The notes under the pieces were generated by a model, which was given only the letters and a program-made list of their open reading frames with translations, had not been told where the DNA came from and searched no databases. The position numbers and the translations under genes were made by a program. A stretch of 64,000 bases of DNA. Source: Chloroflexota bacterium. GTDB taxonomy: Bacteria; Chloroflexota; Dehalococcoidia; Lucifugimonadales; Australimonadaceae. Positions 18,006 to 63,741 of the stretch are shown one piece after another. How positions within the stretch are numbered: position 1 is the first letter of the stretch; each line of letters begins with the position of its first letter. The DNA lies in assembly GCA_028874795.1 (NCBI GenBank), contig JAPPHT010000060.1, forward strand, positions 15,498 to 79,497. Reading direction: 5' to 3'.

Positions 18006-18902
18006 CTACTTCGCCCTCGCGATGATCTGCTCGCCGAAGGCGGGGATCTGCTCGTCGATGATGTCGTTCTGGAACTGCACGTGGAAGGTGTCGACGCCGG
18101 CCTCGCGGCATTGCTCCACGATCTCCAGCACCTGGTCCGCCGTTCCCATGAGCCCGCCGCGGTTGCCGAACACCTGCGCGAGCTTCGTGGCCGGGTCCTC
18201 GTCGCCGACGTAGGCGTTGCAGTTCAGCACGCGGTGGATGGTGCCGGGGTCACGCCCGGCTGCGCCAGCTGCCTCCTCCATTGTGGCGACCTGCTCACGG
18301 TACGCGTCGAAGTCCGGCGGCCATCCGCCGTTGCGTATCCAGCCATCGGCCACCCGTCCAGCGAGCCGGAGCATGCGGGGGCCTCCCGAACCGGTGAAGA
18401 TGGGGATGGTGCCGTTGACCGGCTTGGGCGTGACCGTGGCCTCGGTCACGCTGTAGCGCTTGCCGGTGTAGGTGAACTGCTCGTTCGCCCAGGTGCCGCG
18501 CAGTATCTCGATGGCGTCGGCCAGGCCGTCCACGCGCTCACCGGGCGCGCCGAACTCGAGGCCGTAGGAGGTGAAGTGCGCTTCCTGCCCGCCTGCCCCC
18601 AAAGTGAGGATGAGGCGGTCGCCGCCCGTCATGTGGTCGAGAGCGGTCGCCATCTTGGAGAGCAACGCGGGGTTGCGGAACGGGACGTTGAGCGTGGAAT
18701 GCGTCACGCGGATGCGGCTGGTCTGCATCGCAACTGCTGTCGCCAGCGTCCAGCCCTCGAGGTTGTCCTCGGGCGGCCTGTCGCTGAACGAGATGTTCTG
18801 GAAGCCTGCGGCCTCGGCGGCCTTTGCCACCGCGACGATGCGGTCGTAGGGGAGTCCTCGCGGGTTGAGTCCGAACCTGATGCTGTTGCTGCTGCGCGCC
18901 AT
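18006..18902 (-). CDS. LLM-class (luciferase-like) flavin/F420-dependent oxidoreductase
   Basis: 298 aa with RFGLNP...AEAAGFQNISFSDRP...LILTLGAGG...EFG, typical of luciferase-like monooxygenase TIM barrels. Confidence 0.85.
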   Translation of the reverse strand: MARSSNSIRFGLNPRGLPYDRIVAVAKAAEAAGFQNISFSDRPPEDNLEGWTLATAVAMQTSRIRVTHSTLNVPFRNPALLSKMATALDHMTGGDRLILTLGAGGQEAHFTSYGLEFGAPGERVDGLADAIEILRGTWANEQFTYTGKRYSVTEATVTPKPVNGTIPIFTGSGGPRMLRLAGRVADGWIRNGGWPPDFDAYREQVATMEEAAGAAGRDPGTIHRVLNCNAYVGDEDPATKLAQVFGNRGGLMGTADQVLEIVEQCREAGVDTFHVQFQNDIIDEQIPAFGEQIIARAK

Positions 18903-18991
18903 GCTGATTCCTCAAGAGTGTTGGGCTGTGGCGAGCATACCAGCAGGCGGGGGTCTGTCAACGCGGCGGGCGCAGGCGTTACCATGGAGAC

Positions 18992-19423
18992 ATGATTCCG
19001 GTCACCGACGACATCAGCCTGGCCGAGCACGAGTTGGAGTTCCACTACGTCACGTCCGCGGGGCCCGGCGGACAGAACGTGAACAAGGTTGCCACCGCCG
19101 CGCACCTCCACTTCAACGCCGCGGCATCGCCATCGCTGCCTGAAGACGTGAAGCGACGCCTGCGGAGCGCCGCTGGACGGAGGCTCACTCCAGAGGGCGT
19201 CCTCGTCATCAAGGCGCAGCGCTACCGCAGCCAGGAGCGCAACCGGGACGACGCCGTCGAGCGGCTACTGAGCATCCTGCGCACCGCCGCCGTTCCACCG
19301 CGCCAGCGCCGGACCACGCGGCCGTCCCAGGCATCTGTCGAGCAGCGGCTGGCGGAGAAGCGCCGCCGCGGCACCCGGAAGCAGTCGCGCTCGTCCCTCG
19401 ACGGCATCGACGAGGAGGAGTAG
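18992..19423 (+). CDS. arfB: Alternative ribosome-rescue factor ArfB (peptidyl-tRNA hydrolase, GGQ motif)
   Basis: 143 aa with SAGPGGQNVNKVATA and a basic C-terminal tail (RRTTRPSQASVEQRLAEKRRRGTRKQSR). Confidence 0.9.
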   Translation: MIPVTDDISLAEHELEFHYVTSAGPGGQNVNKVATAAHLHFNAAASPSLPEDVKRRLRSAAGRRLTPEGVLVIKAQRYRSQERNRDDAVERLLSILRTAAVPPRQRRTTRPSQASVEQRLAEKRRRGTRKQSRSSLDGIDEEE

Positions 19424-19427
19424 CCCA

Positions 19428-20606
19428 ATGCCGAGACTCGAAGACCTGCCCGATCTGACCCGGCAGGGGATGCTCAACTTCCCCGCCTTCGATCACGACG
19501 ATGCGCCTTGTGCGCGGATGACCAGACCGCTGGCCGAGGCGAAGATCGCCCTCGTCACGACGGCCGGCCTGCACCTGCGCGACGACACGCCGTTCTCGGG
19601 CGGGGACCAGACGTACCGCGTCATCCCGTCGTCCACGCCCGCCTCGGGGATCATCCAGAGCCATATGAGCATCGGGTTCGACCGCACCGGCATCATGCGG
19701 GACGTGAACGTCACGTTCCCCATCGACCGGCTGAGTGAGATGGCGGAGCGCGGGGAGATAGGCTCGGTCACCGGGAACTACTACTCGTTCATGGGGGCGC
19801 AGCGCAGCCCGCGACGGATCGAGGAAGAGACGGGGCCGGAGGTCGGCCGGCTGCTGCTGGAGGAGGGCGCCGACGCCGCCTTTCTGACGCCGACCTGACC
19901 GAACTGCACGCACACGGTCAGTGTGCTCGCTCGGGCCATCGAAGAGGCGGGGTTGCCCACCGTCACGGTGGCGCTCATCAAGGAGCACGCCCAGCGGGTG
20001 AAGCCGCCACGCACGCTGTGGGTGCCGTTCCCGTTCGGGTTCGCGCTCGGCAACCCGGACGACCCGCCGTTCCAGCAGAAGGTGCTCTCCGCTGCGCTGG
20101 GCCTGCTGTCGGAGAACGACGTGCCCGTGCTCGCCGAGTTCCCGGAGGACGCCGACGCTCCGCCGGTGCTGCTGCAGGCGAGCGCCGCGCAGGCGGAGGC
20201 GGCGAACCGCGACGGCGACCCCGCCGACGAGGTGACGGCGCTGCGCGGCTACTACGAGCGGTGGGTGGACGAACACGAGGGCAGGACGATGGTGGGGCTG
20301 AGCGGGGTGCCGCAGAGGCAGTTCCGGGGCCTCGTGCGCTACCTGCAGGCATTCGCCGGTGGAGAGGACGCGGCATACGACCGTGCGCCGGAGGGGGTGG
20401 AGCCTGTCCGGTTCCTGCGGCTCGCGACGGACGACCTCAAGGCGTTCTTCATGGAGGCGCGCTTCTCCCAGCGACCGAGGGACCGGGACGAGGAGCTGCA
20501 GCGGTGGTTCTGGTCCGAGACGGCGATGGGGAACCTCATCGCGGCTGTGGCGTCGCGCCTCACGGAGCAGGGCGAGGCGCAGACTGCGAACGGCATCGCG
20601 CGGTAG
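19428..20606 (+). CDS. Glycine/sarcosine/betaine/D-proline reductase selenoprotein B family protein (GrdB/PrdB-like), with UGA-encoded selenocysteine at 19896..19898
   Basis: ORFs 19428..19898 and 19923..20606 are in the same frame and are separated only by one TGA. The junction reads FLTPT-U-PNCTHTVSVLARAIEEAGLPTV (a U-x-x-C motif as recalled for GrdB). The N-terminal part has DVNVTFPIDRLSEMAERGEIGSV..YYSFMG, typical of the family. Confidence 0.8.
19899..19930 (+). promoter_or_regulatory. SECIS-like recoding hairpin
   Basis: gcacac (19910..19915) / gtgtgc (19921..19926) forms a perfect 6-bp stem with loop ggtca. The stem starts 12 nt after the UGA, and the loop contains GGUC as in the E. 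coli fdhF SECIS apical loop. Confidence 0.6.
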
Positions 20607-20612
20607 GAGTGC

Positions 20613-20909
20613 TCAGGCCGGACGTGTGCGCTCCTTGACGAGTTCGACGCGAAGCTGGAGGCCGAGAGCCCTGGCGATGTCGTAGACCGTTTCCAGCCGT
20701 GGACTGTGCTCGCCGGACTCCAGACGGCTGACCACCGTCTTTGTTACGCCGATGCGCTCGGCCAGCTCCCGCTGGCTGAGGTGGTTCTCCTTCCTGGCTT
20801 TCACGATTGCGTCGATTAACTCGAACCGGGGGCCGAGCCGGTCATACTCACGCTGAAGCTCAGGGTCTTCCGAGCGGAGTTGTTCAAACAGTTCTTTCGC
20901 GTTACGCAT
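20613..20909 (-). CDS. XRE-family helix-turn-helix transcriptional regulator (HigA/antitoxin-like)
   Basis: 98 aa from the internal ATG (MRNAKELF). LSQRELAERIGVTKTVVSRLESGEHSPRLETVYDIARALG is a classic XRE HTH. No adjacent toxin ORF was seen. Confidence 0.8.
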   Translation of the reverse strand: MRNAKELFEQLRSEDPELQREYDRLGPRFELIDAIVKARKENHLSQRELAERIGVTKTVVSRLESGEHSPRLETVYDIARALGLQLRVELVKERTRPA

Positions 20910-21004
20910 GATGTCTACTCTCTGAGTTGGAGGAGCCTCCTCCTGGCGCGGTCGACGCTTTGCTGCGCCGACCGATAACATTAATGTGGTCAGACTGCAA
21001 GTTT

Positions 21005-22294
21005 CTAGCTTGCCCGCGCGGCGCGGGCGCGGGCGGGGAGCGGAGGACGGCGGGCCAGGAAGAACGTCAGCGAGCCGACTATGGTGACCGTACCGAGCGA
21101 GAGGAACGCGAACGTGTAGTCCCCCTGGGCGTTGTACATCCAGCCCGCGTAGATCGGCCCGATGATGCTGCCGGTCGCCGTGATGATGTTCGACCACCCC
21201 GCGATCTTGCCGAGCTGCCGCAGGCCGAAGTAGTCCGCGCGCAGCGCCATCATCAGCGGGCCGCGCATACCCCACGCCACGCCATGCAGCGCTATCGCGA
21301 GGACCACCGCGGGGACGCTCGTGGACAGCGCGAGGATGCCGATGCCCATGCCGTGGCCGAGCATCGCCGCGCCCGCGAGCATGCTCTTGGAGTACCGGTC
21401 GCCCATGAAACCGCCGCTGACCTGCCCGACGATCTGCGCCACCATCAGCCCCGGGAAGACGAACGCGGCGTGCACGAGGTCCCAGTCGTTGTCCTTGAGG
21501 TGCCCGGGCAGGTGCAGAGGGACGGTGGCGACCACCAGCAGCGCGAGGCCGTGGCCGCTGGAGACGAGCCAGAAGGAGCGGTCGCGGATCGCCTCACGGA
21601 CCGTGAAGTCGTAGTCCGTCCCGGCGGCGCGGCGGGCCGCCGCGTGGCGGGCTGCGTCCTCGTCGTTGTCGCCGTCCGGGTTCAGCCCGAGCTCGCGGGG
21701 GCTGCGCCGGAAGAGCTGCGCGATAGGGAAGCCGATGCAGAACGAGAGGATGCCGGAGAAGATGGCGGTCTCCCGCCATCCGAAGGTGGTGATGGACCAG
21801 GCTATGACCGGGGCGACGACCGCGCCGCTTGCGAAGCCGATGGACGTGACGGACATGGCACGGGCCCGCTTGCGCACGAACCAGTGCGCGATGGCGGTGT
21901 TGATGGTGAGGAAGCTGGCGAAGCTCGTGCCGATCGCGATGACGGTCAGCGCGGCGAAGAGGTGCCAGAGCTCCTGGATGAGCCCGAGCAGGATGAAGCC
22001 GGAGCCGAACAGGAACGTCCCGAGGTACATGGGCAGCCGCGGGCCGAACCGGTCCAGCATCCAGCCCTGGACGGGCCCGAGGAGGCCGGTCTCGATGCGG
22101 AGCAGGCCGAACGCCCCCGACACGGCGCCCCGGCTCCAGCCGAAGGCTGCCTCGAACTGCAGGAGGTAGAAGCCCTGCGAGAGGAAGAGCAGGGACGACT
22201 GCATGATCTGGTTGCAGAACGCCGCCGCGACCATGCGCCAGCCGTAGAAGACACGGTGGCGCATAGCGAGGATGCTTCGGACGGATGCGGCCAT
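21005..22294 (-). CDS. MFS transporter
   Basis: 429 aa with about 12 hydrophobic segments and an MFS-type loop motif (MLDRFGPRL). Confidence 0.85.
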   Translation of the reverse strand: MAASVRSILAMRHRVFYGWRMVAAAFCNQIMQSSLLFLSQGFYLLQFEAAFGWSRGAVSGAFGLLRIETGLLGPVQGWMLDRFGPRLPMYLGTFLFGSGFILLGLIQELWHLFAALTVIAIGTSFASFLTINTAIAHWFVRKRARAMSVTSIGFASGAVVAPVIAWSITTFGWRETAIFSGILSFCIGFPIAQLFRRSPRELGLNPDGDNDEDAARHAAARRAAGTDYDFTVREAIRDRSFWLVSSGHGLALLVVATVPLHLPGHLKDNDWDLVHAAFVFPGLMVAQIVGQVSGGFMGDRYSKSMLAGAAMLGHGMGIGILALSTSVPAVVLAIALHGVAWGMRGPLMMALRADYFGLRQLGKIAGWSNIITATGSIIGPIYAGWMYNAQGDYTFAFLSLGTVTIVGSLTFFLARRPPLPARARAARAS

Positions 22295-22307
22295 TCGGAC
22301 GTGCCGC

Positions 22308-22844
22308 TCAGTCGTACCACTGGCCGGTGATGGTGCGCACCTCGGGGTAGGAGGGGTCGTCTATCGTGGTCTTGAAGGGCGGGAAGAGGAGGTCTATGAG
22401 CAGGCCGGGACCTCCCGCGGGCCCTCTGGCGTTCCGCGCCTGGTGCTGCAGCGCGTCGATCTGCTCCTGGAGCGTCTCGGCGATGCGGAGCAGGGACTCG
22501 ACCTCAGCCGAGCCGGTCTTCAACTGCGAGCGCAGCAGCGCGACGCCGTCCGCTACCTCCCGGGCCTTGCTCGCCTGCACCTCGGCTGCGCCGCCGTGCC
22601 ACTCGCCGGGAGGGTGCCACGTGATGAACGGCGTCATGTCGCCGCCCCAGCGGAAGGAGAGCTCGCCCGTCTCGTGGCTGTGCCGCACGCCGGGCTCACC
22701 CGGTATCTGGAGGAGCGCGGTGACGAGCACCTGGTCCGTCTCCAGCACGGTGTAGACGCGCCGCCGCGGGCGTCCGTGGACCTCGATGCCGCGCCAGCCC
22801 TTCTGGTCGTCGGGCAACTGGAACGGGTTGATCTCGATGGCCAT
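22308..22844 (-). CDS. Cupin domain protein with C-terminal coiled-coil-like region
   Basis: Start at MAIEINPF. PGVRHSHETGELSF fits cupin motif 1 (HxH...E). It lies 13 nt upstream of the MFS gene on the same strand. Confidence 0.55.
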   Translation of the reverse strand: MAIEINPFQLPDDQKGWRGIEVHGRPRRRVYTVLETDQVLVTALLQIPGEPGVRHSHETGELSFRWGGDMTPFITWHPPGEWHGGAAEVQASKAREVADGVALLRSQLKTGSAEVESLLRIAETLQEQIDALQHQARNARGPAGGPGLLIDLLFPPFKTTIDDPSYPEVRTITGQWYD

Positions 22845-22997
22845 CGCTCTCCTCCGTTCGCCAACCATCGCGGGATGGGGGTTGCCACGTTCACTCGCGG
22901 CGCGCTCCACTATACTGCATACGCTCCCGGGCCTGGATGCCGGTCCGGCCTGCCCGCCGAACGCTGACGCGGCGGGGCATCGAGAAGGAGATATACC

Positions 22998-24857
22998 GTG
23001 GCACTGCTCATCCTGTTACTGGCGCTGGTCCTCGCGCTCCTGCAGAGCAACTGCGAGAGAAGCGCCCCGGCGCCGTCCCAGACTCCCACTCCCGTCCCCG
23101 TGGCCACGCCCACGCCTGAGCCGCCACCTGCGCCGGACCCCGAGACGCAGGAGGAGATCGTCGCGCGGCTGCGCGGCAACGCCGACAGCTTCGAGTACGC
23201 GGTCGGCACGCACGGCGGGACGATTACCTACTCGACCATCAGCGAGCCGCTGACGTTCAACCTGCCGCTCGCGAACGACTCCGGTTCGTCCGGCTACCTG
23301 AGCTACGTGTTCGAGGGGCTGACCGAGACCTCGTGGCTGGACGATAGCATCGAGCCGTTGCTCGCGGAGTCGTGGGAGCACTCGGACGATGGGCTGGAGT
23401 GGACGTTCCACCTGCGGCGGGACGTCACCTGGCACGACGGCGAGCCGTTCACCGCGCACGACGTGGAGTTCACGTTCAACCGCGTCGTCTACAACGAGGA
23501 CATCCCCACCAACGACCGCGAGGGGTTCATCTTCGTCTACACCGACGAGGCGACCGGCGAGCAGGTGGACGGCCGGATGACCGTGACCGCGCTGGACGAC
23601 TACACGGTGCGGTTCGTGCTGCCGGTCTCGTACGCGCCGTTCCTCCGCTCCATGGGCTACCCCATCTACCCGAAGCACATCCTCGATCCCTACGTCGAGG
23701 CCGGCACGTTCACGGAGTTGTGGGACGTCGAGACCGACCCTGCGGAGGTCATCGGCACCGGGCCGTTCACCATCACGAGCTACACGCCGGGAGAGCGGCT
23801 CACGCTGGGGCGCAACCCGGACTACTGGATGCGGGACAAGGCGGGGCACATCCTCCCGTACATCGACGAGATCGTCTACCTCATCGTCGAAACGCTGGAG
23901 GAGGAGTTGACGCTCTTCCAGGCTGGCGAGACGGACGCACACGGCGTGCTCGGCGATGAGCACCCCGTGCTGGAGCCGCTGCAGGGGGAGGGCAACTTCA
24001 CGATCCACCGGCGCGGTCCCGGCTTCGGAACGACGTTCCTCACGTTCAACGTACACCCGGGCATGAACCCGGACGGGACGCTGTACATGCGACCCGAGGC
24101 GCGCGCGTGGTTCGAAACACTGGAGTTCCGGCAGGCGGTGGCGCACAGCGTGGACAAGGACCGCGTCGTCGAGGAGGCGCTCGGCGGACTCGGCTACCCG
24201 CAGTGGTCGTCCATCAGCCCCGCCACGGGCGACTTTCACAATCCCGGCGTCCGGCGGTACGAGCACGACGTCGACGCCGCGAACGCGCTGCTCGACGGCC
24301 TGGGCTGGACCGACACGGACGGCGACGGCGTCCGGGAGGACGGTGCGGGCAACCCCATCGCGTTCACGCTCGTCACGAACCAGGGCAACTCGGTGCGCGA
24401 GGAGGCGACGCGCATCATCGCGGAAGGGATGGAGAGCATCGGCCTCGGCGTGGACCTCCAGGTCATCGACTTCGGGGTCATCGTGGAGCAGCTGACCGCG
24501 ACCTACGACTGGGAGGCGGTCGTCATCGGCTTCGGCGGGGGGCCGGACCCGTACGGCGCGAGCTCTTTCTGGCGCAGCGACGGGGACTTCCACCTGTGGT
24601 ACCCGAACCAGCCGGAGCCCGCGACGGCGTGGGAGGCGGAGATTGACGAGTTGTACAACGCTGCTGGCCAGGAGCTGGACCACCAGGAGCGGGTGCGGAT
24701 GTACCACCGCGTGCAGGAGATAGCGGCGGAGCAGACGCCCGTCGTCTACACGGGGCTGTCGGAGCGGCTGACCGCAGTGCGCAACGTGTTCGGCAACGTC
24801 ACGCCCACGCTCTACGGCCTGTGGGACGACCGGTACGTGTACCGCACGGACCAGTAG
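22998..24857 (+). CDS. ABC transporter substrate-binding protein, family 5 (peptide/nickel/opine type), lipid-anchored
   Basis: 619 aa with a GTG start after gaaggag. It has an N-terminal hydrophobic segment and Cys, a Pro/Thr linker, then a DppA/OppA-like body (LTFNLPLANDSGS..., RNPDYW, VTNQGNSVREE). No permease or ATPase genes are adjacent. Confidence 0.85.
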   Translation: MALLILLLALVLALLQSNCERSAPAPSQTPTPVPVATPTPEPPPAPDPETQEEIVARLRGNADSFEYAVGTHGGTITYSTISEPLTFNLPLANDSGSSGYLSYVFEGLTETSWLDDSIEPLLAESWEHSDDGLEWTFHLRRDVTWHDGEPFTAHDVEFTFNRVVYNEDIPTNDREGFIFVYTDEATGEQVDGRMTVTALDDYTVRFVLPVSYAPFLRSMGYPIYPKHILDPYVEAGTFTELWDVETDPAEVIGTGPFTITSYTPGERLTLGRNPDYWMRDKAGHILPYIDEIVYLIVETLEEELTLFQAGETDAHGVLGDEHPVLEPLQGEGNFTIHRRGPGFGTTFLTFNVHPGMNPDGTLYMRPEARAWFETLEFRQAVAHSVDKDRVVEEALGGLGYPQWSSISPATGDFHNPGVRRYEHDVDAANALLDGLGWTDTDGDGVREDGAGNPIAFTLVTNQGNSVREEATRIIAEGMESIGLGVDLQVIDFGVIVEQLTATYDWEAVVIGFGGGPDPYGASSFWRSDGDFHLWYPNQPEPATAWEAEIDELYNAAGQELDHQERVRMYHRVQEIAAEQTPVVYTGLSERLTAVRNVFGNVTPTLYGLWDDRYVYRTDQ

Positions 24858-24862
24858 GGGGG

Positions 24863-24944
24863 CACCCTCACCCGCCGCACAAGCGCGTCGACCTCTCCCG
24901 GAGGGCGAGGTGGGATGCGGGGTTCCTGCCTTCGCAGGAACGAC
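24863..24944. repeat. Hairpin-module cluster (F1-F2)
   Basis: caccctcacccgccgcacaagcgcgtcgacctctcccggagggcgaggtggg followed by gttcctgccttcgcaggaacgac. Confidence 0.85.
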
Positions 24945-24951
24945 GGCCAAA

Positions 24952-25338
24952 CTACGCATCGTCAAAGAAGGCGAGGCGTTCGGAGGGGAGGATGCGGGCC
25001 TCTGCAAGCGGCTGGCGCGCTGGACAGCGGCAGGCCCTGTCCCGGACGAAGCGCACTTCGGCAAAGCCGTGGACGATGGCGGTCATGACGCGGGCGGGGT
25101 CGGGGACACGGCCAGTCCTGGCGCACTGCCGCAGGTAGGGGTCCACGGAGGCGATGGTGAGGATCGGAACATCCTCCGCCGCAGCTGCCTCGACGAGATC
25201 CAGTGTGTCGGGCAAGGGGTTGCCGCTCTCCATGGCGTCGGACCAGCGGTCGATGTAGTCCTCCACGATGGGAAAGAGGGTTACCTGGGCGAGTTGACAG
25301 ACGAGGTAGCGTTCCAGTGCGTCTATGCCACCGGGCAT
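24952..25338 (-). CDS. Hypothetical protein
   Basis: 128 aa ORF located 10 nt downstream of the HTH gene on the same strand, with no recognisable domain. Its 3' end runs into a repeat cluster, so the true stop or length is uncertain. Confidence 0.4.
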   Translation of the reverse strand: MPGGIDALERYLVCQLAQVTLFPIVEDYIDRWSDAMESGNPLPDTLDLVEAAAAEDVPILTIASVDPYLRQCARTGRVPDPARVMTAIVHGFAEVRFVRDRACRCPARQPLAEARILPSERLAFFDDA

Positions 25339-25348
25339 GGGGTCCTCC

Positions 25349-25855
25349 TTATTTCACGTTCTTGAGCAGGGTGAGAGCCTTCTGGAGCTGGTTGAGGCGA
25401 CGGCTGTTCCTTGCGGCCTCCCCAAGCTTGATCTCGGCGTCAATGGCAATGCGTACGGCCTGCGTCCTGACGCGGGGGTTGGGGTCTTCCAGCAGGTTGG
25501 CGAGAATGGCCGTGCTCTTGAGGGCAAGGCCGTTGAGTTCGACATGGGCGAGGCTGGCGGCGTCCTCGCGCAGCCTTCGGAGCTCGTCACGGAAGACAGA
25601 GTCCTGCCGCCAGCGGGTGAGCGTGGAGATGCTGATCTGCGCCATCCTCGCGCCCTCTTCGTTCGTAGCCGCAGCAGCAAGGTAAGGGAGGGCAGTGACC
25701 TGCCTGTCAGAAAGTTCGGGCGGGAAATTCTGCTCTTTTCTGCTCACAGGGCTGTTTTCCACTCGTAAAGCCGGCGTTTCGGGTGGGCAGTCCGGCTGCT
25801 CATTTCTGCTCATTCGCTGTTCTTTTCTCATCAGTTTCTGCTTTTTCCCGCTCAT
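25349..25855 (-). CDS. Helix-turn-helix protein (phage/mobile-element-like regulator or small-terminase-like)
   Basis: 168 aa with a Lys/Gln/Arg-rich N-terminus, an HTH-like segment GARMAQISISTLTRWRQDSVFRDEL, and a helical C-terminus (LEDPNPRVRTQAVRIAID). Confidence 0.5.
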   Translation of the reverse strand: MSGKKQKLMRKEQRMSRNEQPDCPPETPALRVENSPVSRKEQNFPPELSDRQVTALPYLAAAATNEEGARMAQISISTLTRWRQDSVFRDELRRLREDAASLAHVELNGLALKSTAILANLLEDPNPRVRTQAVRIAIDAEIKLGEAARNSRRLNQLQKALTLLKNVK

Positions 25856-26005
25856 CTCTTACCAACTCCTTCCGTCCGTGCGCGGCGGGGTCCTGCAGGC
25901 GCGCATACACAGGGTAGGGAGAGCGATATCGTTGGCACAATGGGCAGGTGTCACAAATGTGACAGAGGGAAGGGCAGGGTGGAGCACACACGCCCGCCGC
26001 CCTGC

Positions 26006-26147
26006 TAACCCTCACCCGCCGCACAAGCGCGTCGACCCGTTCGGCAGGCTCAGGGCAGGCTCTCTCCCAGAGGGCGAGGTGGGCCTCCGCCCCCCGCCTC
26101 ACGTGACCTGCCCGGTTACCCTGGATTCCCGCCGGTGCGGGAATGAC
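26006..26147. repeat. Hairpin-module cluster (F1 variant-F3)
   Basis: aaccctcacccgccgcacaagcgcgtcgac...ctctcccagagggcgaggtggg and ctggattcccgccggtgcgggaatgac. Confidence 0.85.
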
Positions 26148-26153
26148 GAAGGC

Positions 26154-27104
26154 CTACTGGGCGTTGTGGCGGAGGTGCTCGACGTAGGCGGCGATGCCGG
26201 AGTCGATGTCGTGCTCGGGGGCGTAGCCGACGTCCTCGCCGATGCGCGAAAGGTCCATCACGGGGTTGTGCGCGTTGGACGGGGTGCGTCCGGGCTTGAG
26301 CGCGGAGCAGACCGCGTCCGGCAGCGCCTTCTGCACGGCCTCGAAGACGCGCTTCGTCGAGGTCGCCGCGCCGGAGCCGATGTTGTAGGTGTCGTGCGAC
26401 AGCGATCCGGCGGTGTGCACGAGCTGGATGCCGCGCGCGAGGTCGCCGACGTAGGTCCAGTCGCCCTCGTCGTCCTCGTTGATCCCGCCGCCGGGCCTGT
26501 CGGAGAAGTCGGGGTCCTCGCCCTTGAGGGCGGCGTGGCACATGCGGCTCATGGGGTTGAACATGCTGTAGTAGTAGGGGCCGTAGATGCTGCCGATGCG
26601 GAGCGAAACGACGTTCACGTTTGCCCTTGCGGCGTAGTGGAAGGCGTGTATCTCCATGCCCTTCTTGAACGCCTCCACCTGGGTGCCGGAGTGGACGGGC
26701 AGGGGCATGTCCTCGCGGAACGGCCCCTCCGGGATGCTGCCGTAGACGGACGTGGAGCTGGCGAGCGAGACGCGGCGCATGCCGAGGATGCGCGCCGTCT
26801 CCAGGATGTTCTGCAGGCCGGCGGTGTAGATGCGGTAGTCCTCCTGCGGGCTGATGCCTCGCGCTGGCGGGGCGGCGAACGAGATGATGCTGTCGGCCTT
26901 GTGGCGGTTCGCGACGTCCAGCACCTCGTACAGCTTGGTGACGTCCATGCGGTCGACGAAGGCGCGCTCGTTCAGGTGCGGGGTCAGCGCGTCGGGCACG
27001 CGGTTGGCGCTGTGCTGCGTGATGACGACGCTCTCGCCGGTGTCGAGCAGTCGCAGCGCCGTGTTCAGTCCGATGAAACCCATCCCGCCGATGATCAGGA
27101 TCAT
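26154..27104 (-). CDS. NAD-dependent epimerase/dehydratase family (extended SDR)
   Basis: 316 aa with N-terminal MILIIGGMGFIGLNTALRLL (GxxGxxG) and a YGxxK-like catalytic region. Confidence 0.85.
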   Translation of the reverse strand: MILIIGGMGFIGLNTALRLLDTGESVVITQHSANRVPDALTPHLNERAFVDRMDVTKLYEVLDVANRHKADSIISFAAPPARGISPQEDYRIYTAGLQNILETARILGMRRVSLASSTSVYGSIPEGPFREDMPLPVHSGTQVEAFKKGMEIHAFHYAARANVNVVSLRIGSIYGPYYYSMFNPMSRMCHAALKGEDPDFSDRPGGGINEDDEGDWTYVGDLARGIQLVHTAGSLSHDTYNIGSGAATSTKRVFEAVQKALPDAVCSALKPGRTPSNAHNPVMDLSRIGEDVGYAPEHDIDSGIAAYVEHLRHNAQ

Positions 27105-27197
27105 GTGCTCGTTCTCCCGTCAGTGGTTGTGCCGCCTTCGGCGACCTTCTTGTTTTACCACGAGCGAGGGATGCGTGGGTGGGGAGAGGGAGGGATA

Positions 27198-29705
27198 TCA
27201 CTGCTTCCGGAGTGGTTCAAGATAGGTAAGGATTCCTTTCGGGTTCAGCCCAAGTTGTACTAACGACTTCTCAATTTGGGCCAGGAGGCTGTCGTCGCTC
27301 ACGCTCGTTGCAGTTACGTCTCGAAACAGCGAACGGGCTCTCTGTATCAGCAGATCCAGATTGTTGAAAGTGAGCGCAAAGGTGTCACCTGGGGTGACAT
27401 TGTTCGTCACTAGCGGCACCGAGTTAACGATTACACCCTGGGCCGTGTGAGCGGGATAGTGCACGGAGAACCACTTCATTGCCTCAAGCAACTGGCCGTG
27501 GTCCGACTTGTTCGCTGGCCTTCTATCCATCTTTCGGCTCTTGGCCTCAATCACTAGGGCTTCGGTCGAACTCAACAGCCACAAGACATCAGGTCCGATG
27601 TTGTCCTCGTCATCAGGGCGGCTCGTGCTGTAACCCAGGAGTCTGCCAAGATTCTTGAGGGACTCCTCAAACTGGTTACTCGAAGACTTGGGCGTCAGCC
27701 AATCAACCCACTCCTCAAATTCTGCGAGGAGGCCCCGGCGTGGGCTGTAAGCACTTAGCTGATTCAGTATCTGCTGTGACTGGACCGTTGGTGAAGTCAT
27801 TGGTGTGTGGTGGAAACCGACTCGTGGCCTGAGCAGCATCTTGTTGGAATGATATGCCTGTCGCTGTAGCTCGTCGGACTTCTCGTGGTGGCCCCACAGC
27901 CAAGCGGCTCGCGCAGATTGCTGGCAAAGCCATCCCTTTACCTTGCCATCCACGGCCGGAGTATCTTCGATAAAGGCACCGTGAGTGTCAATGGCTTTGT
28001 CAAAATAGCCGTCAAGTAGGAGCCGGAAGAATCGCCTCTCCTGTCCTGCAACAAGCAAGTTGGTCTTGTTGATGGAAGGACTTGAAGTTTCTTCTGCCAG
28101 AACCTGTGCTTGATACTCCACCCAAGCTTGGTCACGGTTGAAGGATTGGAGTACTGTTTTCCCAAGTTGGTCCAATGAGTAGATTTCTTCGCTGATAGAA
28201 ATGCCCAATTCTAACTGAACACGAGTCGGTGATGTAAGTAAGGAACGGTTCGCATGATTGCTAATCCACTTGGCTAGCGCGTTATCCGCAAGGACAACCA
28301 CACAATGGTCGCCAGCACCTCGAGTTCCTCTTCCCATCCCCTGTTCGATTCTCTGTGCAATGGTGGTGTTAATGGTTGCGCTACCTTCAAGCACAGTTGC
28401 TCTGTATAAGTCGTACGAATTGCTACCAGCAGGCAGTCCGTTTAGCACCAAGAGTCGGCAACTGTCACCTGGTAGGTCAATTCCGTCGTACCTATTGGCC
28501 ATGACTATCGGGCCGTTCTTTGACCTGCGGACTAGGTCATCAATTGCATCAGCTACGGAATCACCATCTACAGTCTCGGCGATCTCCTCCCATGCCTGCG
28601 CTTGCCTTGTTGAGGGTACAAGTATCACAGTTCCGGCTTTCCCTGCCGCCCATGTGACGAGTCTCCGTAAGGCCGGTTCAACCTCCGCCCGGTCAATGCC
28701 CATGAGGTTAGGCACAAGAATCATTCGTTCACCGACACCAGCAAGGGACAAAGGGGCAATGGGTGATGAGACTGAAGAGGGGTCGGCTCCAAAGGTTCGT
28801 ACGATTGAACTGTCGTCAGCAACCGTAGCGGACATGTATATCCTGCGGGGGCACTCAGCGAAGGACGGAAACATGTCTACGTTAGGGTACAAGAGCGTAA
28901 TTGCGAAGTCGCGACGGCTCACGAACGCGTGGCACCTGTCAAAATGGTCACGCAGCAGCGGCCACTGCCACGGGAAATGCTTAGCCTGAAGAGAAGCCAG
29001 TTGCTGCCGGATTTCCTGATGGCTTGTCGACCAACTCCAGTATGGAACTTCAATTACTCCCTCGTCTCTGGCTTCTGTGATGTCATCGAAGGTACCCTGC
29101 TTGCCGATTTCCTCAAATGCGTGGCGAAAGCATTGTGTGAGCTCTCGGTAAGTGTCGGGCAATTGTTCTCGCCCTATGGCTATTGAGAACTGATCCCGAA
29201 CGACAGAAAATGCAGTATGTGCATCATCTAATATGATTGCAGTTGGATGGACTATGTCTCTCCTGCCACCCGCTACTCCAAACTTGCTTAGGCCATTAAA
29301 TAAGGCTTGATATGAGGCAACCATGATTGCCTTGCCACTGAGAAAGTCACCATCTAAGTCTTGCCCGGCTATATATGGGACCACGCGGATACCAAATGGT
29401 GTCGCATGAGAAACTGTCTGCTGGACCAATTGGTTAGTAGCACATAGGAATAGAACAGGACCACCGTTTTCAGCCAACGTGGATTGCGCCATCAGCAGCC
29501 CTACTAAAGTCTTCCCGCCACCCGTATTCAGTTTGAGCACGAGATCTCGCTGGTCTCTCCTACCGAACCATTCGTCAAGCGCCTCGGCCTGGCTCTGCCA
29601 TAGATCGTCTATTCCTTCCGGCTTCGGTAGACGCAAGAAGATATCCTTTGGGTGAACTACCTTGGCATTCGAGCGGGCTCTTCTAAGTCGATCAAAGTCG
29701 ACCAT
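27198..29705 (-). CDS. SF2 (DinG/Rad3-like) helicase fused to a C-terminal PD-(D/E)xK-type nuclease-like domain; candidate single-gene defence protein
   Basis: 835 aa. Motifs are Walker A TGGGKT (aa 61-66), motif II DDAH (aa 160-163), SAT (MSATV), DinG-type C-terminal helicase motifs (ANRYDGIDLPGDSCRLLVLNGLP; QRIEQGMGRGTRGAGD), then GPD(706)VLW...LVIE(720)AK(722)S. G+C is clearly lower than in the flanks. Confidence 0.75.
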   Translation of the reverse strand: MVDFDRLRRARSNAKVVHPKDIFLRLPKPEGIDDLWQSQAEALDEWFGRRDQRDLVLKLNTGGGKTLVGLLMAQSTLAENGGPVLFLCATNQLVQQTVSHATPFGIRVVPYIAGQDLDGDFLSGKAIMVASYQALFNGLSKFGVAGGRRDIVHPTAIILDDAHTAFSVVRDQFSIAIGREQLPDTYRELTQCFRHAFEEIGKQGTFDDITEARDEGVIEVPYWSWSTSHQEIRQQLASLQAKHFPWQWPLLRDHFDRCHAFVSRRDFAITLLYPNVDMFPSFAECPRRIYMSATVADDSSIVRTFGADPSSVSSPIAPLSLAGVGERMILVPNLMGIDRAEVEPALRRLVTWAAGKAGTVILVPSTRQAQAWEEIAETVDGDSVADAIDDLVRRSKNGPIVMANRYDGIDLPGDSCRLLVLNGLPAGSNSYDLYRATVLEGSATINTTIAQRIEQGMGRGTRGAGDHCVVVLADNALAKWISNHANRSLLTSPTRVQLELGISISEEIYSLDQLGKTVLQSFNRDQAWVEYQAQVLAEETSSPSINKTNLLVAGQERRFFRLLLDGYFDKAIDTHGAFIEDTPAVDGKVKGWLCQQSARAAWLWGHHEKSDELQRQAYHSNKMLLRPRVGFHHTPMTSPTVQSQQILNQLSAYSPRRGLLAEFEEWVDWLTPKSSSNQFEESLKNLGRLLGYSTSRPDDEDNIGPDVLWLLSSTEALVIEAKSRKMDRRPANKSDHGQLLEAMKWFSVHYPAHTAQGVIVNSVPLVTNNVTPGDTFALTFNNLDLLIQRARSLFRDVTATSVSDDSLLAQIEKSLVQLGLNPKGILTYLEPLRKQ

Positions 29706-29901
29706 CGTGCGTCTCCTTTCAAGTTAGGCTGCCCTCTGACCGTAAGGAGGAGCTTGCCTGTTCCTGTTTGCCAACATGCATGTGTTGGCGTCTGCGCCAT
29801 GTTCAGGAGTGGTGTCCATTATACGAACCTCCACTCTATCCTATCCTCGTACATGGATATGGCGCCAAGGGATTGCGGAGCTGAGCAGGAGAGGCGGTCG
29901 C

Positions 29902-30396
29902 ATGGCCGAAATCACCTACAGACTCATCAGTGCGGGAGAAGCGGAAGATCTGCACCGCCTTGTGATGCGCGCCTTCGACGAGTTCGTCGCTCCGGACCTG
30001 CCGGAAGGAGGCAGGGAGCATTTCAACGACTACGCGTCGCGTGCCCGGTTGGGAGCGCCGGAGCGCCGGCACGAGACCGTCGTGGCCGTCAGCGAGGGTC
30101 GACCGGTGGGCGTGGGGCGCGTCGGGCGCCGGAACGAAAAGCCGCATATCGACCTGCTGTTCGTGGAGAGGGAGATGCACGGGCAGGGCGTCGGGCGGGA
30201 GCTGGTGCGGCGGCTGCTGGCCATTGCGCGCCGGAGCGATCCAACGGCGGAGCGGGTGACGGTCAACGCAACCCGCTACGCGGTGGCGTTCTACGCTCGG
30301 CTGGGATTCACGCCACGCGGGGAGGAACAGACGGTGGGCGGCATCATCTCGACGCCGATGGAGATCAGGCTGGCTGAGGAACGGCCCATCGCCTGA
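29902..30396 (+). CDS. GNAT family N-acetyltransferase
   Basis: Internal ATG (MAEITYRL). HIDLLFVEREMHGQGVGRELVRRLL...ARLGF fits the acetyl-CoA binding motif A (Q/RxxGxG/A). Confidence 0.85.
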   Translation: MAEITYRLISAGEAEDLHRLVMRAFDEFVAPDLPEGGREHFNDYASRARLGAPERRHETVVAVSEGRPVGVGRVGRRNEKPHIDLLFVEREMHGQGVGRELVRRLLAIARRSDPTAERVTVNATRYAVAFYARLGFTPRGEEQTVGGIISTPMEIRLAEERPIA

Positions 30397-30766
30397 CGCG
30401 GAAGCCCCTGAGTCGCGTGGAGGGGAGCCGCCTGAGCGTCTGGCTATTGGGGTCGACCTCGATGCCCGCGGACTCCAGCGCGGTCACGCCCAGGAGCGGC
30501 TCGGCGTTCGCGTCCCCAATGACGATGGTGGCCCCTACGATCTCGCCCATAATTTCGATCTGAGCGACAGTGACCTCCATGCGTACCTGGCTGCCGTCGG
30601 CCAGGCTGTAGACACGCTCTCCCTTGGGCATCAGGCCGATGGCCTCCAACTGGGGGCGGGGCGCCAGACAGTCGATAGCCCCGGTGTCGACGAGGAAGAG
30701 TCCCTCCCAAGCCTTCTCCGGGTCGGCGGGATTGCGGACGGTGGTGGCTACCTGCGTGATTGCCAT
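30365..30766 (-). CDS. Retropepsin-like (clan AA) aspartyl protease family protein
   Basis: 133 aa with the LVDTGA catalytic motif and a later IGDANAEPLLGVTALE segment. It is convergent with, and slightly overlaps, the GNAT gene. Confidence 0.7.
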   Translation of the reverse strand: MAITQVATTVRNPADPEKAWEGLFLVDTGAIDCLAPRPQLEAIGLMPKGERVYSLADGSQVRMEVTVAQIEIMGEIVGATIVIGDANAEPLLGVTALESAGIEVDPNSQTLRRLPSTRLRGFRVRRWAVPQPA

Positions 30767-30817
30767 ACCTGAAATGTAGGGTTCGCCCGTATACGTGTCA
30801 ATCAGGCCGTGTCAGTC

Positions 30818-60192: not shown

Positions 60193-60606
60193 CTAGACGA
60201 AGGCTATCAGCAACGAGACTCCGACCAACACTAGGAGGGGGATGTAGAATAGGTACAGCCTTGCCGCCACCCCGATGAGACTGTCCGAGCCCTTGGCGCC
60301 TGAGAGCCCTTCCATTTTGAAGTAGCCGTCGCTGCCGTATTCTGGGGGAGGGCCAACTCTCACGGAGTCATACAACCTTCGGAAAGCTCGTTCTTCTGCG
60401 AGGAATCGCGCGTCGAGCATCCACAGCGGAAGAATCGCAGTCCCGGCAATAGCGCCGATTGGGGAATTGGTGCTCGCCGTGAGCGCTACCAACGCCGCCG
60501 TAGCTGCTGCTGCCGTCGACTTGATGGCGAAGGAGTTTCTCCCGAGCCTGTTTACGACCGCCTGGATGAGCTCCAGATGTTCTATTCTGGCCATTTCTTG
60601 GCTCAT
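60193..60606 (-). CDS. Multi-TM membrane protein, candidate effector partner of the TIR-like protein
   Basis: The ATG at 60606 overlaps the upstream TGA (ATGA). The 137 aa comprise an N-terminal helix (IEHLELIQAVVNRLGRNSF), two adjacent hydrophobic helices, the motif WMLDARFLAEERAFRRLYD, and a C-terminal TM (LYLFYIPLLVLVGVSLLIAFV). Confidence 0.6.
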   Translation of the reverse strand: MSQEMARIEHLELIQAVVNRLGRNSFAIKSTAAAATAALVALTASTNSPIGAIAGTAILPLWMLDARFLAEERAFRRLYDSVRVGPPPEYGSDGYFKMEGLSGAKGSDSLIGVAARLYLFYIPLLVLVGVSLLIAFV

Positions 60607-60977
60607 ATCTCGTCCAGTCGTCTGTTGATCTGCTTCCATCTCCAGGGGATGGGATCCTCGACCCCGGCAACTCCAGCGTAGGGTCGCTTCTTCGGTCTAA
60701 CCTGAAGAGTGGGTTTGCCGAAGCTACGCGCCATGTCCACTTCGGTCCTTACTCCCGGGGCGTTGTGGGTGTCCTCGCCAATCAGGACAATCACTACGTC
60801 GCACCCTCGAATCGCCTCTCTCGCCTCTCGTTTCCACTCCTCCGTAGGATAGGCTTCCCTAAGTGAGCAATTCCTGATGCGGTGCTGAGTCTGCAGCTTC
60901 GCCTGTTCGTAGAAACTGTCTCTGAGGTCCCTGTCTTTGTCGAACTCGAAACTCACGAAGATGTCCATCGTAGCCAT
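60603..60977 (-). CDS. TIR-like domain protein (MTH538/DUF1863-type)
   Basis: MATMDIFVSFEFDKDRDL... and CDVVIVLIGEDTHNAPGVRTEVDMARSFGKPTLQV match the pattern recalled for PF08937-type TIR-like domains (vFiSf..D; vvvLiG..T..s.wV..Ei..A...gkP). Confidence 0.7.
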   Translation of the reverse strand: MATMDIFVSFEFDKDRDLRDSFYEQAKLQTQHRIRNCSLREAYPTEEWKREAREAIRGCDVVIVLIGEDTHNAPGVRTEVDMARSFGKPTLQVRPKKRPYAGVAGVEDPIPWRWKQINRRLDEI

Positions 60978-61128
60978 GGGCCTCTTCTCGCCGCATGGAG
61001 TCATATGCCTGCCCGGCCCGCCTTTCTTGTACGAGAAGCCGCGCAAGGCATACTAGCGAGCCAACTGATACTGTACTACGAACCCCCTAGCGGGTAGCGT
61101 CCCTGCGGGCCGATAGCCGGTGGTCCAT

Positions 61129-61263: not shown

Positions 61264-62463
61264 TTATCCTGTGGTTAGTCCTGCCACTCTCAGAGACTGC
61301 ACGGCGTTCTTTACGACACGCGCTGCTTCCTCCACATCGCGGTCAGTTGTGAAGCGCCCGAAACTGAATCGGATAGAAGACTCCGCTTGGGCTGATGTCC
61401 GTCCTATGGCTCGGAGCACGTGCGAGGGCTCAGGGATACCAGACGTGCAGGCTGCTCCGGTGGACGCCGCAATGCTTGGCTGGAGAGATCCAAGGACATC
61501 CTGTGCCGCTGCACCTTCAAAACGCAGGTTCGCATTGCCAGGGTGGCGCCAGCTTCCAATGGGCCCGTTGATGGCCATCGAGGGAACGGTGGCTCGCAAG
61601 CCTTCCACGAAAGCGTCACGTTGCCTGGCCACCCTCAGACGTTCAGGGGCGGTATCGGAAGCACAGATCAAGTCCGCCGCTGCTCCCATTCCAACGCATA
61701 GCGGCACTGGCATCGTGCCGGACCGCAATCCGGCTTGCTGCCCACCCCCATAGATGATCGGTTCAATCTGTCCTTGTACATCCCGCCGGATGTATAAGGC
61801 GCCGATCCCTTGTGGGCCGTACATCTTGTGCGCCGACAAGCTGATTAGGTCAGCATGTTCAGCAAGGTGGCGGAGGTCCATGGCGCAGGGGGCCTGGGCG
61901 GCGTCGCAGTGGAAGAGAACACCATGCTCTGCCAACAGAGCGGCGATGCGCGGTAGGTCTTGAATCGTCCCGATCTCGTTGTTGACCGCCATCACTGAGA
62001 CGACGAGAACTGAATCGTCAAGCATGGCCTCTAGGGTTCCCAAGTCAAGGAAGCCCTCCTCATCGACCGGAATGAACTCAACTACGAGGCCCTCTCGCTC
62101 TTCGAGAGACCTAGCTGCCGCCATCACGCACTTGTGTTCGATTGCGCTTACCAAGACCCTAGGACGCTTCGATGATGCCCGGCGGCCCAAGCCCAACAGA
62201 GCGAGGTTGTTCGCCTCAGTGGCGCCTGAAGTGAAGACGACCTCATCGGCGTCGGCTCCGATCAGCGCTGCAACGGACGACGTTGCGCGTTGGACAGCTT
62301 CCAACGAACGCCAACCGACTACATGATCGTTCGAATGGGGGTTGCCGAACAGCTCACGCCAGTAGGGGGCCATCGCCTCAAGGACACGCTGATCTACGGG
62401 CGTCGTCGCCTGATAGTCCGCATAGATTGTTTGCACGCCAGGGGACGGCTGCGTGTCGCTCAT
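61264..62463 (-). CDS. Cysteine desulfurase (IscS/NifS class), DndA/SspA-like by context
   Basis: Start at MSDTQPSPG. TSGATEANNLAL, SLSAHKMYGPQGIGALYIR (PLP Lys) and TGAACTSGIPEPSHVLRAIG (catalytic Cys loop) are present. It is divergent from a DUF4007-like gene inside the low-GC island. Confidence 0.8.
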   Translation of the reverse strand: MSDTQPSPGVQTIYADYQATTPVDQRVLEAMAPYWRELFGNPHSNDHVVGWRSLEAVQRATSSVAALIGADADEVVFTSGATEANNLALLGLGRRASSKRPRVLVSAIEHKCVMAAARSLEEREGLVVEFIPVDEEGFLDLGTLEAMLDDSVLVVSVMAVNNEIGTIQDLPRIAALLAEHGVLFHCDAAQAPCAMDLRHLAEHADLISLSAHKMYGPQGIGALYIRRDVQGQIEPIIYGGGQQAGLRSGTMPVPLCVGMGAAADLICASDTAPERLRVARQRDAFVEGLRATVPSMAINGPIGSWRHPGNANLRFEGAAAQDVLGSLQPSIAASTGAACTSGIPEPSHVLRAIGRTSAQAESSIRFSFGRFTTDRDVEEAARVVKNAVQSLRVAGLTTG

Positions 62464-62775
62464 CGATTTCACCGAGGGACTTATTCCTCTCTCCGATACT
62501 TCCAGCCCATTTGTATCCCGATTGTATAATGCTCTCCTGCTGGTTCGACACATGCGGTGGAAGACATGGCATCGAACGCAGACGCACCAACCTGTCGCGC
62601 AAGCGCCGGAGTTCCGGCTGGGATGAGTCGAGGCCCAACTGTCTGAGGGGGAGCACCCGAAGACATGGGTGGCGCTGGCCCTCCCAAAGCCTCGCGCTCA
62701 AGGCCACCGGCTTCTATACAGCGTACAAGCACCTGTGCTACCGTCCACCCAACGTTCTTTCTAGGAGGAGGGTGC

Positions 62776-63741
62776 ATGCCCCGAGGCCCCCTCTACGAAG
62801 ACGGGTACAGCCCACATCTGTCCGGGCACGAGACGTTTCCCCTCAGGTATGGGTGGTTGAAGAAGGCTTTCGATGCTGTCGAAAGCACAGAAGGTCGTAG
62901 CGAGAGCAACCGGCACGTCTTCTTGGGTCCTCATGCCATCGCCGAGTTCGGCGTGGGCAGGAACATGGTCGCCTCCATCCGCCACTGGGCGACGGCCGCA
63001 GGCGTCATCAAGGAAGGGTCTGAATCCACGCAGATCGAGACTACTCCACTCGGACGGCGTCTGTTCGGTAAGGACGGCCTCGATCCCTACATGGAGGAGC
63101 CAACTACATCCTGGCTTGTTCACTGGAATATTGCGGGCAACTCGAAGAAGACCACTTGGTTCTGGGCCTTCAATCACTATCCAGCCATGGTCTTTGAACG
63201 CGAAGGACTGGTTCAGGCCATCAACGGACTCGCGAAGGAACGGGAGTGGCCCCGGGCCGCCTATGCCACGATCAAGAACGATGTCGCTTGCTTCCTACGA
63301 ACGTATGTGGCTCTGCCTCCTTCTGGGAAGTCCAATTTAGAGGAAGGATTGGAATCGCCCCTCACCGAGCTAGGCCTGATCAGACAGACCGGGACACGGG
63401 AGCGCTATAGATTCGTCCGAGGGCCGAAGCCATCTCTTGGCGTCGGCGCGTTCGGCTACGCCATGACCCAGTTCTGGAATGAACGCTTCCCGAACACCAG
63501 CACCCTATCCTTCGAAGCGTTGGCCCACGAGCCCGGCTCTCCAGGGAGAGTGTTCCTATTGGACGAAAACGAACTGATAGACAGACTATCCAGCATAGAG
63601 AGCGCGACCGACGGCGCCTATAGATGGTCTGAGACCGCCGGCCTCAAGCAAGTGATCCGAGACGCCATAGTGGACAAAGAAGCCGCCACCCGGCTCCTTG
63701 CAAGAGACTATTCTTCGGCGCACAGGCGGAGAGCGGCGTAA
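62776..63741 (+). CDS. DUF4007-like protein (SspB-like component of Ssp-type DNA phosphorothioation, by recollection)
   Basis: ATG after ctaggaggagg. The N-terminal LSGHETFPLRYGWLKKAFDAV matches my recollection of the DUF4007 N-terminal signature. The protein is 321 aa. Confidence 0.5.
   Translation: MPRGPLYEDGYSPHLSGHETFPLRYGWLKKAFDAVESTEGRSESNRHVFLGPHAIAEFGVGRNMVASIRHWATAAGVIKEGSESTQIETTPLGRRLFGKDGLDPYMEEPTTSWLVHWNIAGNSKKTTWFWAFNHYPAMVFEREGLVQAINGLAKEREWPRAAYATIKNDVACFLRTYVALPPSGKSNLEEGLESPLTELGLIRQTGTRERYRFVRGPKPSLGVGAFGYAMTQFWNERFPNTSTLSFEALAHEPGSPGRVFLLDENELIDRLSSIESATDGAYRWSETAGLKQVIRDAIVDKEAATRLLARDYSSAHRRRAA

Follow-up and report, generated by a model that had tools for sequence, protein, structure and literature searches.

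An Hna-family helicase-nuclease encoded by a low-GC accessory gene in a sponge-associated Dehalococcoidia bacterium

The window analyzed here, a 64,000-nucleotide stretch of contig JAPPHT010000060.1, carries on its minus strand (27198..29705) a gene for an 835-residue protein that belongs, at a probability of roughly 97%, to the Hna (helicase-nuclease abortive infection) family. The gene, hna, is chromosomal, and its host is a high-GC Dehalococcoidia (Chloroflexota) bacterium of a sponge microbiome; the sequencing runs in which the sequence was found carry no RNA label. Membership in the family taken together with a core nuclease-based role in defense is an assignment that we make with good confidence. 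An initial annotation of the window had described the protein as a DinG/Rad3-like superfamily II (SF2) helicase fused to a C-terminal PD-(D/E)xK-like nuclease domain, had considered it unassignable to a named family from sequence alone and had mentioned Hna as an analogy only; the family can in fact be named, as Hna itself, which the PADLOC database carries under the label PDC-S28.

Family Assignment and Domain Layout

The hna open reading frame (ORF), taken from an ORF list and its translation, begins with ATG and is preceded by an AGGAG ribosome-binding site (29713-29717) 7 nt upstream of the start; this start codon is taken as correct because the N-terminal MVDF is conserved across the family. 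The helicase motifs named in the initial annotation are at their places (TGGGKT at aa 61-66, DDAH at 160-163, SAT at 292-294, and the C-terminal motifs, including EQGMGRGTRG at 454-463), and GPD at 704-706 and IEAKS at 719-723 lie nearer the C-terminus. Searches of Pfam matched ResIII and DEAD to aa 37-196 and Helicase_C_2, the DinG/XPD-type C-terminal helicase domain, to aa 394-479; no Pfam family was found over aa 500-835.

Family membership is evident across the whole protein. Hna of Sinorhizobium meliloti, encoded on pSymA, was reportedly described by Sather et al. in 2023 in Cell Host Microbe (31:343). PADLOC model PDC-S28 (PDLC04986) is matched by the window protein end to end (model positions 1-831/831, E = 3.2e-261, 867 bits), and a second PDC-S28 model (PDLC04987) gives 575 bits. 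On the first of these models, S. meliloti Hna reaches 1020 bits, and a published table assigns the DefenseFinder label 'Hna' and the PADLOC label 'PDC-S28' to one and the same protein; thus PDC-S28 is an earlier, unnamed label of the Hna family. A phmmer search of the PDB returned one strong relative, the 845-aa chain of entries 10UJ, 9YHN, and 9YKJ (E = 3e-116, residues 1-808 aligned with 1-817), which are cryo-electron microscopy structures of S. meliloti Hna (Hooper et al., 2026, Nat Commun, PMC13381803). By BLASTP, the window protein and pSymA Hna are 32% identical (E = 1e-125). An AlphaFold2 model was built on 30 homologs, with the pSymA sequence left out of the alignment, and reached a mean predicted local distance difference test score (pLDDT) of 88.3 and a predicted template modeling score (pTM) of 0.84; its top Foldseek match is 9YHN, 'Hna Monomer' (E = 8e-61, TM score 0.83/0.84, 843 columns), followed by XPD, DinG, and CasDinG, with query-normalized TM scores (TMq) of 0.33-0.39 that cover the ATPase core only.

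The architecture of the family is intact: an SF2 ATPase core of two domains (HEL1 and HEL2), an all-helical middle region and a C-terminal nuclease domain (NUC; Table 1). The middle region is without a Pfam match, has helices across aa 492-667 in the AlphaFold2 secondary structure, and aligns throughout with S. meliloti Hna. The elements of NUC in the model are α(676-689), β(693-695), β(707-710), β(715-721), α(733-749), and β(754-761); E680 lies in the first helix, D706 starts the second strand and E720-x-K722 ends the third. The nuclease domain proposed in the initial annotation is thereby borne out, both in its fold (AlphaFold2 model, Foldseek) and in the conservation of its acidic and lysine residues among homologs (125-sequence alignment, below).

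S. meliloti Hna and the window protein are alike in being encoded by a single gene, in length (845 and 835 aa, respectively), in the HEL1-HEL2-helical linker-NUC order, in the Q-motif glutamine, Walker A and B, motifs III and VI and the PD...ExK site, in having no Fe-S cluster, and in the low G+C of the gene for its replicon (0.50 vs. 0.54-0.60 on pSymA). They differ in a 7-residue insertion after the Q motif, which is absent from the window protein, and in location, S. meliloti Hna being encoded on a rhizobial megaplasmid whereas the window gene is on a chloroflexotal chromosome. DinG, XPD, Rad3, and CasDinG (Csf4) share with the window protein the fold of two RecA-like domains and the Helicase_C_2 motifs, but the window protein has the additional C-terminal PD-(D/E)xK domain and no Fe-S cluster; in Hna, moreover, the arch domain is reduced relative to DinG/XPD-type helicases (PMC13381803). 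The description as DinG/Rad3-like thus holds for the fold and fails for the family, given the missing Fe-S cluster and scores far below the DinG, YoaA, and Rad3 cut-offs. Similarly, the fusion to a nuclease is real, but 'helicase' needs qualification: characterized Hna, unlike the DinG/XPD helicases, does not unwind DNA, and the ATPase part is an ATP-dependent module that regulates a 3'-5' exonuclease acting on single-stranded DNA (ssDNA; PMC13381803). Hachiman (HamA/HamB), Nhi, Gabija, and Cas3 likewise join a nuclease to an SF1 or SF2 ATPase, and several helicase-plus-nuclease defenses are also activated by the SSB (single-stranded DNA-binding protein) of a phage or by DNA damage (PMC13381803, introduction). 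In Hachiman, separate genes encode the two activities, and the window protein, which has no partner genes, matches HamB only locally; Nhi, Gabija, and Cas3 differ from Hna in family and architecture and were set apart without direct comparison.

Active-Site Conservation and Predicted Mechanism

A search of 1.84 billion cluster representatives returned 875 at E <= 1e-30, nearly all of 820-850 aa. The window protein, S. meliloti Hna and 123 full-length representatives drawn from the best 150 matches were aligned; the 125 representatives share 50% identity or less. Eight residues are invariant in this alignment (Q39, K65, D160, D161, H163, R459, R462, and K722, each 125/125), D706 and E680 are each present in 124 of 125 sequences, E720 in 120 (with D in two more) and P705 in 117. 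The ATP-site residues Q39, K65/T66, and D160/D161 are kept in the window protein and occur in 123-125 of the 125; their counterparts in S. meliloti numbering form an ATP site comprising R36/Q39 of the Q motif, K72/T73 of Walker A and D162/D163 of Walker B. At the nuclease site, D706, E720, and K722 align exactly with the experimentally required D713, E727, and K729 of S. meliloti Hna (PMC13381803), and P705 aligns with P712. All residues that have been mutated in the two active sites of Hna are kept in the window protein, except R36.

S. meliloti Hna degrades ssDNA from the 3' end by means of its PD-(D/E)xK domain and does not unwind duplex DNA; its ATPase is stimulated by ssDNA (PMC13381803). 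The exonuclease is lost with K729A and weakened with P712A/D713A/E727A; R36A/Q39A eliminates the ATPase activity and increases cleavage 15-fold (PMC13381803). ATP inhibits the enzyme by favoring a homodimer whose nuclease domain is undocked, phage SSB activates it, and its toxicity is due to the nuclease activity (PMC13381803); hna alone is sufficient for abortive infection in vivo (PMC12445080), consistent with Hna being a single-gene system (PMC12445080, PMC13381803).

By analogy with this enzyme, the N-terminal DinG/XPD-like SF2 core of the window protein would bind and slowly hydrolyze ATP without unwinding DNA, and the ATP-bound state would keep the nuclease off, as it does in S. meliloti through a homodimer formed via the HEL1 loop. 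Upon infection, a phage product (phage SSB in the known case) and abundant ssDNA would lift the inhibition; unrestrained degradation of ssDNA would then halt phage replication and kill or arrest the cell, the outcome termed abortive infection. The same core chemistry, that of a predicted 3'-5' ssDNA exonuclease, is very likely, because the architecture is complete, every catalytic residue is retained and the gene is under purifying selection: comparison with the syntenic gene of a related genome (L001) gave a dN/dS of 0.07 (dS 0.54; dS of the flanking major facilitator superfamily (MFS) transporter gene 0.45), which marks hna as strongly constrained and, judged by its sequence, functional. Restraint by ATP is likely as well. 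Conservation of the ATP/dimer lock and of the SSB trigger is plausible, at odds that we would call even, because the relevant residues differ. It is from the S. meliloti enzyme that we infer the enzymatic activities, the ATP/dimer control, the trigger and the defense phenotype in this organism.

Composition, Chromosomal Slot, and Competing Explanations

The hna coding sequence has a G+C content of 0.524 and a G+C content at third codon positions (GC3) of 0.549, compared with 0.667-0.684 and 0.82-0.96 in six neighboring genes. It is the lowest-GC 2.5-kb stretch of the window, 6.5 standard deviations below the rest (z = -6.5), so that the low G+C of the initial annotation, estimated by eye, is upheld by measurement (52.4% vs. 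66-68% in the neighbors). The patch includes a 196-bp upstream spacer, to about 29900, in which the promoter presumably lies. This spacer is conserved only relative to the syntenic L001 locus and not relative to L006, L005, or L002, and alignment of the hna upstream regions from different contexts gave no common promoter or leader besides the ribosome-binding site. The low G+C is a property of the gene in all settings that were compared: it is 0.50-0.555 (GC3 0.52-0.64) in the window, L001, L002, L005, L006, L086, L087, and L085 (pSymA), and lies below that of the flanks in the other contexts and on pSymA. The window and L001 copies show no amelioration despite a dS of 0.54 since their split; whatever holds host genes at a GC3 of ~0.9 seems to spare hna.

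hna is an accessory gene, acquired horizontally by this Dehalococcoidia host. Its neighbors are an epimerase gene, a divergent GNAT acetyltransferase gene, a gene for a retropepsin-like aspartyl protease and the MFS transporter gene. A close relative (L007) has an empty site, the only one found: its epimerase and MFS transporter are 94 and 86% identical to those of the window, with no hna and with ~480 bp of REP (repetitive extragenic palindromic)-like DNA between the two genes. In a blastn comparison, L007 1987-3013 matches window 27183-26155, such that similarity resumes straight after the hna stop codon. The indel as a whole (L007 1508-2103 vs. window 27184-30815) removes the protease-like gene, the GNAT gene and hna together, and REP-like repeats lie at the junction; of the three genes, hna with its spacer alone is low in GC.

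Three further relatives carry hna in the same slot, between the GNAT and epimerase genes. In L001 and L053, the flanking proteins are 81-95% and the Hna proteins 92% identical to those of the window, and in L006 the flanking proteins are 80-96% and the Hna protein 74% identical. By sliding comparison, the window and L006 share 82-88% DNA identity in the MFS, protease-like, and GNAT genes, 65-75% in hna and 92-97% in the epimerase gene; over window 27198-29901 and L006 7774-10505, the upstream spacer is unalignable and hna has reached dS saturation, whereas the MFS gene has a dS of 0.43. Given this divergence between similar flanks, the L006 slot holds a deeply diverged hna allele, which points to replacement or independent acquisition and away from vertical descent. 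A diverged allele in the same slot suggests cassette exchange at a fixed site. The epimerase gene downstream of hna in L006 (10627-11536; long-read assembly) appears frameshifted, with two tblastn segments in different frames and a called gene of 208 aa, the cause being pseudogenization or an error in the assembly. Within the clade, a single chromosomal slot is thus found occupied, differently occupied, or empty.

Relatives that are 69-77% identical occupy at least five different contexts. The L005 homolog lies among Rieske oxygenase genes, that of L086 adjoins the nuo operon, and that of L087 is part of a classical defense island (IS110, type I restriction-modification, PDDEXK_4, Phd/PIN and a CAP12 TIR gene). 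In a Dehalococcoidia metagenome-assembled genome (L002, 12391-20665), the genes that come after hna are those for a PemK/MazF toxin, for DUF6414 together with an IetA-like AAA ATPase (a low-GC pair), and for a DDE transposase, which makes this a defense and mobile-element neighborhood. Plasmid records with a homolog number 243, among them Agrobacterium Ti plasmids. A search of a phage collection returned one match, to a Salmonella chromosomal contig at 29% identity, and no phage record that clearly carries a homolog.

Several observations weigh against assigning a mobile, S. meliloti-like defense function to the window gene. The sole characterized Hna is only 32% identical, and the clade of the window protein is known from sequence alone. 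The ATP-contacting R36 of S. meliloti Hna is W36 in the window protein, and T30/D31/P34 of the dimer interface are E30/G31/D34; the interface residues vary across the family, so ATP-locked dimerization cannot be read from them. Since the L001 lineage split off, hna and its flanks have been passed on vertically together, so the gene did not arrive recently. No integrase, transposase, or other mobility gene and no tRNA adjoins it (the three tRNAs of the window are at 37.8, 42.4, and 59.6 kb), and searches for target-site duplications or terminal inverted repeats at three candidate edges found 8-9-mers of chance length only. PADLOC gave no match for the epimerase, GNAT, or protease-like neighbors, leaving no recognizable defense island around the window gene, and a scan of 26900-30100 for promoter and terminator consensus sequences gave no more than shuffled DNA would, with no σ70-like consensus in the spacer.

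The one live alternative is that the protein is a true Hna whose clade, with W or Y at position 36, is regulated or triggered otherwise: through no ATP-locked dimer, by a trigger other than SSB, or with the GNAT or protease-like gene as a partner. We regard it as distinctly improbable. Besides the substitution of R36, the HEL1 loop differs (LPKPEGIDDLW in the window protein, LDRATDKGPLR in S. meliloti Hna) and is strongly conserved within the clade (R25, P27, K28, G31, D34, and L35 at >=90%), which suggests a clade-specific interface. However, position 36 is R in 75 of the 125 aligned sequences, Y in 23, W in 14, and F in 6, so that the aromatic residue, with 43 occurrences, is a common natural variant, and all of the ATP-site residues other than 36 are invariant. 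With respect to a partner, the indel relative to L007 does take out the protease-like gene, the GNAT gene and hna together, but the two neighbors have host-like GC and neither occurs beside hna in L002, L005, L086, L087, or pSymA, being confined to the syntenic loci; furthermore, published work shows Hna to operate as a single-gene system (PMC12445080, PMC13381803). As no neighbor matches a defense model or recurs beside hna elsewhere, a single-gene system fits, the two genes were rejected as partners and they are probably not part of an hna unit. The broader proposal that the GNAT-epimerase slot of sponge-associated Dehalococcoidia is a defense hotspot exchanging diverged hna alleles, and that the Hna clade of Chloroflexota and relatives, with W36 and a conserved HEL1 loop of its own, is switched differently (by another oligomeric lock or a non-SSB trigger), is tentative, and we think it unlikely.

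Apart from Hna, the protein could be a housekeeping DNA-repair helicase of the DinG/XPD/YoaA type with unusual composition, in keeping with XPD and DinG as the closest folds after Hna, a Helicase_C_2 score barely above its cut-off (26.7 vs. 25.3 bits) and the presence of the gene in the same GNAT-epimerase slot of three related genomes. Tests of membership in these families, however, gave scores far from the NCBIfam cut-offs (YoaA 17.6 vs. 680 bits, rad3 14.5 vs. 247, DinG 12.8 vs. 789, dinG_rel 11.7 vs. 548), and TMq falls from 0.83 for Hna to 0.33-0.39 for XPD and DinG. The 4-Cys Fe-S cluster is missing: the cysteines are at 88, 192, 258, 285, 416, 468, and 594, with C88 alone between 66 and 160. 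A universal position in the core genome, which would be expected of a housekeeping gene, is contradicted by the empty L007 site and by homologs in five unrelated contexts and on 243 plasmid records, and the GC3 of 0.55 compares with ~0.9 for the genes of the genome. This explanation is effectively refuted. A stray part of a multi-gene helicase system is the least probable origin, and Hachiman, type IV CRISPR, and Zorya were ruled out, since the weak partial PADLOC matches (typeIV_DinG, 59.6 bits, aa 282-482; HamB, E = 6e-4, aa 23-81; Mrr-like nuclease of ZorD, E = 0.014, aa 675-765) fall short of the full-length PDC-S28 match by 200-250 orders of magnitude and no HamA (DUF1837), cas, or zor genes are among the called neighbors.

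Other Features of the Window and Significance

Hairpin-repeat clusters are present, as the initial annotation had it, at 26.0-26.15 and 30.8-31.05 kb, beyond the epimerase and the GNAT and protease-like genes. They do not mark the borders of an island, a role that was rejected because further copies of these REP-like elements are scattered over the intergenic DNA of the window (8.2-8.4, 24.9, 34.4, 38.7, 41.5, 45.5, and 47.8-47.9 kb). There are several families of these short GC-rich hairpins, which are clustered and have related copies in sister genomes; examples are ATTCCCGC-N4-GCGGGAAT, CCTCTCCC-N-GGAGAGG, and CCTTCCCCC-N5-GGGGGAAGG.

A second, larger stretch of lower GC (0.56-0.59; 59568-64000) starts right after a tRNA-Ala gene and holds defense genes (Table 1). 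It resembles a tRNA-linked defense island containing an Ssp phosphorothioation system that continues beyond the window end. Elsewhere, an 8-kb segment (~18000-26150) lies between blocks that are adjacent in L001, and L006 keeps only the part of it with the small ORFs (24952-25855), for which no significant Pfam match was found.

Table 1. Coordinates of hna, its sites, and other features of the window; those of the individual motifs and nuclease-site residues were checked.
Feature	Position	Strand	Remarks
hna coding sequence	27198..29705	−	835 aa plus stop codon at 27198-27200; PDC-S28, PDB Hna and Foldseek matches
SF2 ATPase core (HEL1+HEL2), aa 1-510	28176..29705	−	Pfam ResIII, DEAD, Helicase_C_2; boundaries approximate
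Q39	29589-29591	−	coordinates checked by translation
Walker A TGGGKT	29508-29525	−	coordinates checked by translation
Walker B DDAH	29217-29228	−	coordinates checked by translation
Motif III SAT	28824-28832	−	coordinates checked by translation
Motif VI EQGMGRGTRG	28317-28346	−	coordinates checked by translation
All-helical middle region, aa 511-670	27696..28175	−	joins ATPase core to nuclease; boundaries approximate
PD-(D/E)xK nuclease domain (NUC), aa 671-835	27201..27695	−	AlphaFold2 model and Hna alignment
P705-D706	27588-27593	−	nuclease site; coordinates checked
E720-A-K722	27540-27548	−	nuclease site; coordinates checked
Low-GC 5' spacer, hna to divergent GNAT gene	29706..29901	−	GC 0.52-0.57 in 100-bp windows
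Insertion 3' junction	27184..27197	.	similarity to L007 resumes straight after hna stop codon
GNAT acetyltransferase	29902..30396	+	Pfam
Retropepsin-like aspartyl protease	30365..30766	−	Pfam
Rest of block missing from empty site L007 (GNAT and protease-like)	29902..30815	.	GC3 0.82-0.83
SBP_bac_5 solute-binding protein	22998..24857	+	
Two small ORFs	24952..25338 and 25349..25855	−	within 8-kb segment
tRNA-Ala	59568-59643	+	start of second lower-GC stretch
PDC-M50A	60193..60639	−	E = 2e-21
ThsB-like TIR / PDC-M50B protein	60603..61046	−	
SspA/DndA cysteine desulfurase	61264..62553	−	E = 3e-130
SspB/DUF4007	62665..63741	+	E = 6e-106

The structure and mechanism of Hna were published in 2025-2026, and the window gene adds a new member to a known family; since that family is already described, the gene matters little for discovery. 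It does provide a firm annotation, 'Hna family abortive-infection nuclease', for a gene that public records call 'DEAD/DEAH box helicase' or 'replicative superfamily II helicase', and a direct demonstration that the unnamed PDC-S28 of PADLOC is Hna. It also puts on record a well-conserved clade of Hna among uncultured, high-GC Chloroflexota associated with sponges. The natural W/Y/F36 variants and the variable dimer loop of the family offer a ready test of the generality of the S. meliloti ATP/dimer switch.

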